Below, one piece after another: positions 10,529-11,443 of a stretch of DNA of 11,721 nt (positions are counted from its first letter, which is position 1; the number at the start of each line of letters is the position of its first letter). The stretch comes from a virus. Lineage: Duplodnaviria > Heunggongvirae > Uroviricota > Caudoviricetes. Below the pieces are notes generated by a model. The model saw only the letters and a list, made by a program, of their open reading frames with translations. It had not been told where the DNA came from and searched no databases. The position numbers and the translations under genes are program-made. The DNA lies in the IMG/VR virus record IMGVR_UViG_2663762849_000017; one strand, given 5' to 3'.

Positions 10529-10560
10529 AATTTAGTACCTATAGTGAGCAAAATTAGAAC

Positions 10561-10582
10561 AAACATAGCAACGGCTATGTTT
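10561..10582. promoter_or_regulatory. MntR-type operator: perfect inverted repeat AAACATAGC-N4-GCTATGTTT
   Basis: The 9-bp arms are exact reverse complements and match the MntR box architecture described at E. coli mntH, as I recall it. It lies 33-54 bp upstream of the sitA start, just downstream of the putative -10. Confidence 0.7.
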
Positions 10583-10609
10583 TATAACATAACCTATACA
10601 GAATGAAAA
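10581..10609 (-). promoter_or_regulatory. Putative sigma70 promoter of sitABCD (-35 TTTTCA, 17-bp spacer, -10 TATAAA on the minus strand)
   Basis: Hexamers read on the minus strand. The -35 overlaps the Fur-box-like sequence and the -10 abuts the MntR palindrome. Confidence 0.4.
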
Positions 10610-10623
10610 TGATTATCATTAGC
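10605..10623. promoter_or_regulatory. Fur-box-like sequence GAAAATGATTATCATTAGC
   Basis: 16 of 19 positions match the Fur consensus GATAATGATAATCATTATC. It overlaps the putative -35 of the sit promoter. Confidence 0.65.
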
Positions 10624-10721
10624 ATTTTTGAGGCCCAAAACAGGGATTAGTTTGTTTCCTGCTGGATGAAAGGACTCTTGGGATAGCACATGCCGCACGA
10701 AGAGCAGCATTACATGATGTT

Positions 10722-10961
10722 TTGTCGAATGAGCTACGAATCCTGATAGAAATACGAAACAAGCTAGCACATGGACAATGGATCTATCCCTTCAATAATG
10801 AAGGAAATACTGTGGACCCTGATAAATATAAATTAATCAATAAAGAAAACTTGCAGTCACTCCAATTCAAATATTCATTAGCACAGCATTTAGTTGACGC
10901 TGTACATGATTTGGTTGTAAGTCCTACGACATTCGAACGAGATTTCGAAAGCCATTTTTAA
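10722..10961 (+). pseudogene. Possible gene remnant or small ORF in AT-rich DNA (79 codons, TTG start, no Shine-Dalgarno); product not recognised
   Basis: The frame opens only 30 codons upstream (TGA at 10629-10631) with no ATG. The translation is protein-like (ELRILIEIRNKLAHGQWIYPF...), but a TTG start without an RBS suggests either a 5'-truncated remnant of a larger gene or a non-gene. Confidence 0.25.
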
Positions 10962-11223
10962 AAATTATATCAAGTACGAACAAACTTAGTGACAAAAGAC
11001 TACGAAAAATATAAAACAATTTTAGTATTAAGTAGAGAGAAATTTCGTTCTGCTAGGACGCAGCAATAGGTTCATGAGATTCTCTGATACTTGTTACCTT
11101 AGTAAGCCTTAAATTTTTAAAAATTCTTTTACGTCCACTCCTCGCTCATAACAGGCATTAACTACATTTATCTTCATTGGCTATGCAAGTCGTAATAAAA
11201 GGTGGGACAAAACTGAGACACAT

Positions 11224-11254
11224 AAGGTCTCACAAAGGTCTGCAAGGCCTCACA
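11224..11254 (+). repeat. Three phased direct repeats AAGGYCT (at 11224, 11235, 11244), two followed by CACA
   Basis: AAGGTCTCACA / AAGGTCTGCA / AAGGCCTCACA at roughly 10-bp spacing, about 200 bp from the icd junction. These are candidate protein-binding sites, e.g. recombinase arm-type or Xis-type sites. Confidence 0.3.
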
Positions 11255-11443
11255 TGTATTGAGATGTTAATAAAATGTAGACTTGTAATTTTGATATAAA
11301 TGGTAGATAAAACCTTTCCCCAAAATAAAAACGAACGTCAATGAAATCAAACGGTTGAATAAAGTTGATTTTGGCTAATAAAAAAACAATAAAATAATTT
11401 TTATCATTAAATATCAATGACTTGAACTTAATATTTTTATATA

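Follow-up and report, generated by a model that had tools for sequence, protein, structure and literature searches.

The AT-rich segment at positions 10,530–11,443 of the window (the entire 11,721-bp stretch of phage DNA that was analysed) very probably represents a slot for accessory genes (moron slot) followed by an attachment arm, which together form the right end of a lambdoid prophage that resembles phage 21 and resides in icd. The compositional contrast described in the initial annotation is real, with a GC fraction of 0.327 in the segment versus 0.512 at positions 1–10,529, and the positions given there for composition, open reading frame, repeats and palindrome all agree with the sequence. 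The 914 bp were found to be a mosaic of five pieces (Table 1), whose boundaries were set by blastn comparison with phage 21 and with a locus carrying an intact HEPN-type gene (L004). The AT-richness stems from a patchwork of non-coding and horizontally acquired DNA rather than from a single element. The earlier proposal, in which the sequences of an attachment arm are combined with a decayed moron gene, is borne out for most of the segment: positions 11,164–11,659 share 92.5% identity with the attP region of phage 21 (L021 2501–2996, blastn; 91.4% with M61865), and the start-less frame belongs to what is left of a 243-aa HEPN-type gene that was truncated and interrupted by a nonsense codon. 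It does not account for the left 135 bp, which are sitA promoter and operator DNA. The prophage or island is the known sit-carrying PAI-icd, which together with its Sit system has been catalogued in many ExPEC and AIEC strains (PMC7545054). Insertion site and cargo are those of this Iss/Sit island, of which the window holds the right end; nothing of substance differs, and the published catalogues leave the spacer between sitA and icd undissected. The segment as a whole is ordinary and largely known, meaning that a compositionally odd 0.9-kb stretch of a widespread ExPEC/ST131 prophage island comes down to a promoter, the remains of pseudogenes and an attachment arm that is already characterised, and that annotators can treat the frames at 10,722–10,961 and 11,250–11,417 (minus strand) both as non-genes.

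Table 1. Pieces of the AT-rich segment and features located within or next to them (window coordinates).
Feature	Position	Strand	Basis or remark
sitA promoter region (5' regulatory region of the sitABCD module)	10,530–10,665	-	sitA start codon ends at 10,528
MntR-box-like inverted repeat AAACATAGCAACGGCTATGTTT	10,561–10,582		CATAGC-N4-GCTATG
Fur-box-like site GCTAATGATAATCATTTTC	10,605–10,623	-	17/19 matches to GATAATGATAATCATTATC
HEPN-type gene, 3' 55%, with its own 3' flank	10,666–11,148	+	DNA identity to intact copy
Pseudogene, C-terminal ~135 codons of 243-aa HEPN-type gene	10,666–11,069	+	includes ORF 10,722–10,961
Rx4H motif RNKLAH	10,755–10,772	+	in HEPN pseudogene
13-bp direct repeat ATTTTTAAAAATT (family D1)	10,954–10,966 (second copy 11,113–11,125)	+	
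Nonsense codon TAA	10,959–10,961	+	in HEPN pseudogene
Original stop codon TAG of the HEPN-type gene	11,067–11,069	+	in HEPN pseudogene
3' flank imported with the HEPN-type gene	11,070–11,148	+	colinear with L004 8733–8811
5'-truncated remnant of the phage 21 gene CPT_21_32 (51-aa 'putative membrane protein')	11,142–11,262	+	blastn against L021; start lost via 71-bp deletion
60-bp hairpin block with AAGGYCT repeats	11,203–11,262	-	also in lambdoid phages that use different attachment sites
Phage 21-type attP P arm (phage-derived arm of attR)	11,263–11,443	+	one arm-type dodecamer, two IHF consensus sites
Candidate arm-type integrase site, dodecamer CTTTCCCCAAAA	11,314–11,325	+	sole exact YYTTCCCCAAAA match in the window
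IHF consensus site AATCAAACGGTTG	11,345–11,357	+	match to WATCAANNNNTTR
IHF consensus site TATCAATGACTTG	11,412–11,424	+	match to WATCAANNNNTTR
Displaced host icd 3' end (icdC-type pseudogene)	11,444–11,608	+	partial isocitrate dehydrogenase in near-identical L003

The leftmost piece belongs to the sitABCD module. Positions 10,400–10,665 are 96.6% identical to sitA and its upstream region in phage 21 (blastn), while plasmid-borne sit promoters, found on more than 950 plasmids, are only about 86% identical to the prophage copy, with the plasmid match confined to 10,530–10,664; the homology to phage 21 and that to the plasmid loci both stop at 10,664/10,665. The inverted repeat CATAGC-N4-GCTATG occurs once in the window, where 0.03 occurrences are expected, and the same motif is found at the 5' end of mntH in K-12, where it overlaps the start annotated for mntH as well as the small ORF ypeD and serves as the MntR operator. 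For the Fur-box-like site no match was obtained in 200 shuffles. Directly upstream of sitA, the first gene, there are consensus matches for both regulators, namely an inverted repeat of the MntR type and a Fur box, just as in the sitABCD promoters of Salmonella, Shigella and E. coli. In Salmonella, sitABCD is repressed by MntR and Fur (PMC8970401). These motif matches, taken together with the Salmonella genetics, suggest a corresponding control of the prophage sitA, whereby manganese and iron repression of sitABCD would act within the piece through the MntR operator and the Fur box.

The second piece derives from a HEPN-type gene. Positions 10,662–11,154 match L004 8325–8817 with 96.3% identity (blastn), and the open reading frame at 10,722–10,961, which had been described as start-less, was confirmed to consist of 79 codons with a TTG start and an upstream region devoid of a Shine-Dalgarno sequence. 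The fragment was truncated 5' at codon ~109 and lacks the 108 N-terminal codons; possessing neither start codon nor RBS, it fails as an intact, expressible gene. The family it comes from comprises 445 homologues, typically of about 243 aa, the best match being 93% identical, and the RNxxAH motif is invariant, with R140, N141, A144 and H145 unchanged in 35 homologues. The AlphaFold model of the HEPN-type protein reached a pLDDT of 87, and a Foldseek search against the PDB retrieved non-specific helical bundles only. Neither the ORF fragment nor full-length homologues matched any profile of Pfam, NCBIfam or PADLOC, curated HEPN profiles included, and a sequence search of the PDB likewise returned no match. 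The gene probably encoded a defence or toxin RNase. In comparison to the known HEPN-domain RNases (HEPN/MNT toxins, Abi proteins and the MAE_28990/MAE_18760-like HEPN proteins), none of whose profile HMMs matches it, the family is uncharacterised and the window copy is a dead fragment.

The fragment was found in 298 E. coli genomes, with one 5' breakpoint common to its copies among the matches listed, and a near full-length copy elsewhere in the genome was present in 2 genomes only. Its left junction carries the microhomology CTGG (10,662–10,665) and its right, illegitimate junction the microhomology TCGCTCA (11,142–11,148). The interval between sitA and attP, which in the window holds the HEPN fragment, is occupied in phage 21 by three small ORFs together with a 252-aa gene that is unrelated to it; the idea that the 252-aa gene, occupying the same slot, is a diverged allele of the HEPN-type gene was rejected (BLASTP E = 22). 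Illegitimate recombination at CTGG and TCGCTCA put the fragment in the place of about 1.4 kb of DNA of the phage 21 type, and in sister genomes it is decaying further through a repeat-mediated deletion and IS1 insertions. Sister prophages show a 160-bp deletion between the two ATTTTTAAAAATT copies, a variant seen in L020 and in protein P0009, and IS1 insertions are found in sister copies of the fragment. The piece is a clean case of moron-slot turnover, in which an unrelated 1.4-kb phage 21 segment was swapped for a defence-type HEPN fragment via microhomologies of 4–7 bp, the latter being eroded stepwise by nonsense mutation, repeat-mediated deletion and IS1 insertion.

The alternative that ORF 10,722–10,961 is an expressed small protein, i.e., a domesticated C-terminal HEPN fragment, was considered since its frame retains the Rx4H motif and stays open for 110 codons from 10,632, and a 120-aa version is annotated by gene callers in some genomes (P0009). 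This reading is extremely improbable given the unfavourable start, the loss of the first 108 residues of the parent including four predicted helices, the nonsense codon that removes the last 35 residues, the deletions and IS1 insertions in sister copies and the fact that RefSeq leaves the ORF unannotated. The 79-codon frame and the palindrome both belong to the dead HEPN fragment and are without function. The palindrome AATTTTTAAAAATT (11,112–11,125) is perfect, as had been reported, and unremarkable by itself because about 11% of shuffles of the AT-rich 914 bp contain a perfect palindrome of at least 14 bp. Conservation likewise counts against it, as in the flank of the intact source gene (L004) it is imperfect (AATTTTTAGAAATT). 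It is a single-base accident in the 3' flank of the HEPN-type gene.

To the right of the HEPN piece phage 21 DNA resumes with the remnant of a small gene. Positions 11,142–11,171 match L021 2400–2429 with 86.7% identity, and from 11,164 onward the window corresponds to L021 2501 onward (blastn). The intervening 71 bp (L021 2430–2500, with the ATG at 2444) are missing from the window, and this deletion is the reason why the 51-aa gene lacks its start codon. The remnant retains the upstream region 11,142–11,166 and an open frame at 11,152–11,259, followed by TGA at 11,260–11,262. Intact homologues of 50–51 aa exist, including one with the same C-terminal allele (P0126). The notion of an undescribed small gene, which had been kept as a fallback, is thus right insofar as a real 51-aa gene family is represented here, and wrong insofar as the window copy is 5'-truncated.

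The rightmost piece is the phage-derived arm of the attachment site. It was found to be nearly invariant in 24 related loci and to abut the icd 3'-end homology which holds the crossover and which starts at ~11,444–11,446. Phage 21 attP (M61865; complete genome OL657228) possesses the same P-arm dodecamer, the same two IHF consensus sites and the same junction with the icd 3' duplicate, with sitABCD lying immediately to the left in both; the window differs in that it holds the attR junction with the host icd 3' end, whereas phage 21 provides attP, and in the missing 71 bp. In addition to its P-arm dodecamer, phage 21 possesses three tandem copies next to int, annotated as P1P2P3. Matches to WATCAANNNNTTR number two in the 11.7-kb window, where 0.46 are expected, and both reside in the P arm between arm site and core. 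By homology to the experimentally studied phage 21 attP, the CTTTCCCCAAAA dodecamer would be contacted by the arm-binding domain of the integrase, and bending of the DNA by IHF at the two consensus sites would help to bring Int to the core, where the icd homology begins. The two attachment sites that the initial annotation had put forward for comparison behave differently: that of phage 21 is homologous over 11,164–11,659, whereas the e14 P arm is non-homologous. Between e14 and phage 21, identity starts at TGCTGCGCCATATGGG (~11,446) and the arms diverge to the left of the icd homology. As its P arm is non-homologous, e14 is unusable for testing the conservation of the repeats. The icd 3' end, which adjoins the segment and marks the junction and core region, is followed by the icd terminator at 11,632–11,654.

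Between the HEPN piece and the P arm, overlapping the 51-aa remnant, lies the hairpin block, to which the phased repeats belong. AAGGYCT copies are present on the plus strand at 11,224, 11,235 and 11,244, as had been noted, with one further copy in the window at 6445. The three-copy cluster is at chance level: because three copies of a 7-mer (with at most one mismatch) within 31 bp arise in ~35–39% of shuffles, the triple repeat is unremarkable by itself. The phage 21 counterpart reads AAGGCCT / ATGGCTT / AAGGCCA, and as the middle unit is degenerate in phage 21 itself, conservation counts against the repeats too. It had been proposed that the cognate integrase (as arm-type sites) or excisionase binds them, the copies being aligned along the same side of the helix. 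The presence of three copies, spaced by 11 and 9 bp, in a conserved block near attP would fit this idea. The arm-type motif of this system, however, is YYTTCCCCAAAA, and the minimal phage 21 attP, reportedly delimited by Wang et al. in 1997, is said to measure 366–418 bp and to end at the outermost dodecamers, so that the repeats, ~65 bp outside the sole P-arm dodecamer, fall beyond it. Considering also the deviating second and third units in phage 21 and the fact that the block recurs in DLP12, the Sf phages and Turner, all of which have different attachment sites and att sequences that are dissimilar outside the block, a role as integrase or Xis sites is very unlikely.

What had been described as phased repeats are the two arms and the top of a hairpin in a slightly degenerate allele. 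As minus-strand RNA, positions 11,218–11,257 form a hairpin of 40 nt (18 positions, one C.A mismatch), followed by CUCAGUUUUGUC. Calculated minus-strand fold energies amount to -17.2 kcal/mol for the window (z -2.3), -23.5 for phage 21 (z -4.1), -21.5 for DLP12 (z -5.3) and -18.9 for SfII (z -4.5), the window allele being the weakest folder among the compared sequences. The block adjoins the att sites of DLP12, O157, the Sf phages and Turner and was found in ~73% of complete E. coli genomes, beside attP or attR of lambdoid prophages which use icd, argU, thrW or a tRNA-Pro-like site.

As a non-exclusive complement to the reading of the segment as moron slot and attachment arm, it is tentatively suggested that the minus strand of the block is the counterpart of lambda tI/sib, i.e., an intrinsic terminator at the end of the int transcript. 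With the same tentativeness it may be an RNase III target which, sited beyond attP, is separated from int by integration. The block always resides int-distal of attP or attR in phages of at least four att specificities, and its edges coincide with the hairpin plus the GUUUUGUC tail, the latter being almost unchanged among 12 sequences, of which 2 differ by a single substitution each. It folds well on the minus and poorly on the plus strand because the G.U pairs form on the minus strand only. The SfII annotators called it a putative rho-independent terminator on the minus strand, and a terminator scan of the window returned a terminator-like site at 11,232–11,214. Further, the small ORF passes through the block or ends before it in a frame that varies by lineage, and because these frames and ends vary, conservation of the block is not protein-coding. 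Against the tI/sib reading stand the lack of compensatory pairs in 12 sequences, which are too similar for covariation to favour either side, with 5 of the 18 pairs broken in some, and the distance of the U-run, which begins 5 nt past the long stem and is thereby atypical of intrinsic terminators; in addition, the high identity could reflect recent recombinational spread. Read alternatively, the site consists of a 6-bp hairpin plus GUUUUG.

Lambda itself has the same overall layout, with int, P' arm, core, a P arm with arm-type and IHF sites and a hairpin beyond, and lambda tI/sib and the window block both lie on the far side of attP from int and on the int-sense strand. The arm-type site sequences of lambda are unrelated to those of the phage 21 type, and the phage 21 arm is longer than that of lambda by an insert of ~165 bp that consists of icd sequence. 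Lambda tI is a separate hairpin next to P1, to which sequence comparison revealed no homology of the block; the block aligns just beyond tI, where lambda has a homologous small ORF as well as a degenerate block copy without U tail (27,372–27,533). The most likely role of the hairpin, put forward with less than even confidence, is that of a terminator or insulator which would act on minus-strand transcripts leaving int and attP. It is doubtful that the block is a portable 'att-distal' module which, independent of the integrase, generally does in lambdoid phages what tI/sib does in lambda. If true, such a module, as minus-strand terminator and RNase III hairpin, would limit the expression of Int by the free phage, and integration would uncouple it from int. 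The block is paired with a small membrane-protein gene.

Two further readings were considered. The first takes up the small regulatory RNA that the initial annotation had raised as a fallback, and assumes that it acts in trans like those encoded by e14 (co293) and by the NC-SV prophage (svsR). A stable hairpin is present and icd-integrating prophages do carry sRNAs (PMC12803456), but svsR resides at the 3' end of cI, outside the window (PMC12803456), wherefore the svsR/co293 lead was rejected for this segment. No Rfam covariance model reaches its threshold in 10,530–11,443, the only sub-threshold match there being the eukaryotic lncRNA model MEG8_3 at 10,784–10,840 (13.9 bits versus a gathering score of 40, E = 1.4), which is at chance level; the remaining weak matches fall at 11,554–11,721. 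Promoter-like matches, too, are at chance level (6 found versus 5.4 expected), leaving an sRNA most unlikely here. In the second reading, CII would activate a promoter at the minus-strand TTGC-N6-TTGT (11,232–11,245), in line with the annotation given to the corresponding site in the phage 21 genome. TTGYN6TTGY is shared by the window and phage 21, but that annotation rests on the pattern, the motif is expected several times by chance per phage genome, inspection of the sequence revealed no acceptable -10 hexamer at the right distance, and the second annotated site of phage 21 is unconserved in the window. The CII box was judged a pattern coincidence, and a CII-activated promoter is highly improbable.

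A small follow-up could be merited for the hairpin block, which very commonly borders lambdoid att sites on their int-distal side, and for the adjoining 50–53-aa ORF. This membrane-protein ORF is conserved next to the block, and its lambda copy is unannotated in the reference record NC_001416.

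The segment between sitA and icd (10530-11443, 914 bp) was divided into the pieces tabulated below, whose boundaries were set by pairwise blastn. The initial annotation had interpreted it as an attachment arm plus a decayed moron, and this main reading stands, with a phage 21-type arm and the fragment of a dead HEPN gene; the homologies, junctions, truncations, motif occurrences and fold energies given below were observed directly. The compositional contrast is real (GC 32.7% vs 51.2% in the window left of the segment), and the ORF at 10722-10961 (79 codons, TTG start, no Shine-Dalgarno sequence), the three AAGGYCT repeats (11224, 11235 and 11244) and the perfect palindrome AATTTTTAAAAATT (11112-11125) were all recovered as described. 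When the 914-bp segment was shuffled, a perfect palindrome of at least 14 bp occurred in ~11% of the shuffles and a triple 7-mer inside 31 bp in 35-39%, hence palindrome and repeats taken alone are at chance level and not significant. As a whole the segment is ordinary and its by-products are modest.

Features of the sitA-to-icd segment and of adjoining sitA
Feature	Position	Strand	Basis or remark
sitA	9614-10528	minus	
sitA promoter	10530-10665		homology
CATAGC-N4-GCTATG within AAACATAGCAACGGCTATGTTT	10561-10582		only copy in window
Fur-box match, 17/19	10605-10623		motif comparison
HEPN gene fragment	10666-11148		blastn to L004
Truncated small-ORF piece	11142-11262		blastn to L021
Start-less 36-codon remnant of 51-aa ORF	11152-11259		
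Hairpin block with AAGGYCT repeats	11203-11262	minus	hairpin 11218-11257
55-codon ORF	11250-11417	minus	annotated in phage 4C10
attP P arm proper	11263-11443		
Dodecamer YYTTCCCCAAAA	11314-11325		sole exact copy in window
IHF consensus sites	11345-11357; 11412-11424		only two exact in whole window

Judged from its sequence, the attachment arm belongs on every testable feature to the phage 21 attP family. Phage 21 carries the same P-arm dodecamer plus three tandem copies next to int, annotated as P1P2P3. The stretch from the former to the third of the latter measures 398 bp in phage 21, in keeping with the 366-418 bp which Wang et al. reportedly delimited in 1997 as the minimal attP of this phage, with the outermost dodecamers as its limits. 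The P arm ends at the start of the icd homology (~11444-11446); the arm of e14 is unrelated left of this point but identical right of it, a pattern as expected for a shared attB and unshared arm specificity. Int would be bound at the dodecamer via its arm-binding domain, and IHF would bend the DNA at its two consensus sites, thereby bringing Int to the core, where the icd homology starts.

The decayed moron derives from a HEPN-type gene, as window 10662-11154 is 96.3% identical at the DNA level to 8325-8817 of L004, a locus with an intact 243-aa gene (8001-8732), of which this stretch comprises codons ~109-243 plus 85 bp of 3' flank. The translated fragment has 445 homologues, mostly of ~243 aa, the top one being 93% identical. 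In this window the gene is certainly a pseudogene; ESHFKKLYQ of the family reads ESHF-stop-KLYQ, whereupon the original frame runs to the TAG at 11067-11069. The fragment replaces ~1.4 kb of phage 21, including an unrelated 252-aa gene, and its junctions with phage-21-type DNA possess microhomologies (CTGG left, TCGCTCA right). It was found in 298 complete E. coli genomes, with one common 5' breakpoint among the matches listed, and a near full-length copy in only two, at other chromosomal places. In the literature, as far as could be found, neither the identity of the dead gene nor a microhomology-mediated swap in the moron slot is described. A sister class (prophage L020, protein P0009) lost 160 bp between 13-bp direct repeats (10954-10966 and 11113-11125), a deletion which fuses the HEPN frame with downstream sequence and yields an annotated chimeric ORF of 120 aa. 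The right-hand repeat copy is the palindrome of the initial annotation, which is imperfect in the flank of the intact HEPN gene (AATTTTTAGAAATT). The repeat reads ATTTTTAAAAATT, and the corresponding position in L020 is ~613-623. IS1 insertions in the sitA-to-icd spacer of several genomes (E. coli H22-H25, H157-H158) add to the evidence that the central part of the segment is not needed. Presumably neither the HEPN fragment nor the remnant of the small ORF, the palindrome or the minus-strand ORF of 55 codons has a function. The HEPN-type gene gave no match in any profile library searched; R140-N-x-x-A-H145 is invariant in its family, and intact copies are single genes, one of which adjoins AbiJ-like and PIN genes. 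Our interpretation is an uncharacterised RNase of HEPN type, probably with a defence or toxin role. In phage 21 this slot between sitA and attP is occupied by another gene, intact and coding for 252 aa (CPT_21_31, 1563-2321 of the genome record L021), which matches no Pfam entry and is not similar to the HEPN family.

To the right, window 11142-11171 matches L021 2400-2429 and the sequence from 11164 on matches L021 2501 on, so that 71 bp of phage 21 are absent, including the ATG of a 51-aa putative membrane protein. Intact homologues of 50-51 aa form ~44 clusters (nearly all annotated E. coli, one Salmonella), and the C-terminal allele of the window's small ORF also occurs in one of them, P0126. 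In lambda (NC_001416 27372-27533 (+), i.e., L167 73-234) a 53-aa ORF (MHAGCGEVVKEKKSAASFDITAIFLLVMQVVVGG...) without CDS feature is situated between ea59 and tI/attP and shares homology with the phage 21 protein in its N-terminal, transmembrane half.

From GGGACAAAAC (~11198) rightwards the sequence is nearly invariant in 24 related loci, the left flanks of which belong to five unrelated or diverged types. A search of 5426 complete E. coli genomes gave a 60-100-bp piece over 11203-11262 in 3953, with up to four copies each. In the ~10 loci examined the block always borders the att site of a lambdoid prophage on the int-distal side, the specificities being icd, argU/DLP12 (ompT-envY), thrW and tRNA-Pro-like. 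The K-12 copy is flanked by ompT and envY, at ~75 bp from a tRNA 3' fragment interpreted here as the DLP12 attR duplicate of argU; the block adjoins a thrW-like tRNA fragment in O157:H7 and a tRNA-Pro-like att site and int in phage Turner, and is found between int and gtrA in the Shigella phages SfII, SfV, SfI and SfIV, where the SfII record lists it as a putative minus-strand rho-independent terminator. Copies of the block are located at L160 3001-3067, L161 3001-3099, L162 2501-2560 and L163 2001-2098. No description of the wide spread of this block with the small membrane-protein ORF, including the unannotated lambda copy, was found in the literature. The minus-strand RNA forms a hairpin of 18 positions followed by CUCAGUUUUGUC, with fold energies of -17.2 kcal/mol (z -2.3) for the window, -23.5 (z -4.1) for phage 21, -21.5 (z -5.3) for DLP12 and -18.9 (z -4.5) for SfII; for the plus strand of the window, folding was poor (z -0.7). 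The proposal that the AAGGYCT repeats are Int or Xis sites was not upheld; the triplet is the inverted repeat of the hairpin in the slightly degenerate allele that the window carries, and in phage 21 the units are AAGGCCT, ATGGCTT and AAGGCCA. In phage-21-type phages the small ORF continues across the whole block, in L009-type phages it ends within the block and in L017-type phages ahead of it, and the homologous lambda ORF takes another frame; the block is thus conserved as nucleic acid, not protein. Covariation gave no support (nine of 18 pairs invariant, four one-sided, none compensatory, five broken in some sequences), and taking this together with the other evidence the block is only tentatively suggested to be a minus-strand terminator or insulator at the int-distal attP edge, positionally like lambda tI/sib, which would halt minus-strand transcripts. 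True retroregulation by RNase III is considered unlikely. Lambda differs in that its own tI is a different hairpin, beside P1, and the U tail is lost from its version of the block.

The window represents the right end of a lambdoid prophage, comprising tail-fibre genes, sitDCBA (minus strand), the segment and the final 165 bp of icd; 293 complete E. coli genomes possess near-identical copies, followed by host ymgL, ycgX and bluR. The free phages 4C10, 4A7, 1W and 3W show the same arrangement, with the icd 3' fragment, int and xis after the segment. In phage 21, too, sitABCD occupies this position, with sitA and its upstream region matching window 10400-10665 at 96.6% (blastn); for plasmid-borne sit loci the match is confined to 10530-10664. 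The motif CATAGC-N4-GCTATG also occurs at the K-12 mntH 5' end, overlapping the annotated mntH start and the small ORF ypeD; this mntH repeat is the MntR operator. Salmonella sitABCD is repressed by Fur and MntR (PMC8970401), and both may repress sitABCD here by acting at 10561-10623. PAI-icd islands with a Sit system have been catalogued for many ExPEC and AIEC strains (PMC7545054); sit promoter and PAI-icd context are already known. The region just outside attR is variable too, as the host flank past the icd remnant (window 11655-11721 vs L010-L018 and L159) differs among strains, this window continuing into ymgL and ycgX, whereas in K-12-type strains iraM adjoins icdC. The icd terminator hairpin AACGGGCG...CGCCCGTT (window 11632-11654) is T-rich on both sides; in the free phage it immediately follows int, on the opposite strand, which makes int transcripts a possible additional target. 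Finally, the icd pseudogene feature (537..700) of the phage 21 attP record M61865 apparently has coordinates of the opposite strand; in L001, its reverse complement, 536-700 stands against the annotated 2211-2374 for the icd homology, which is really located between P arm and int, not past xis.
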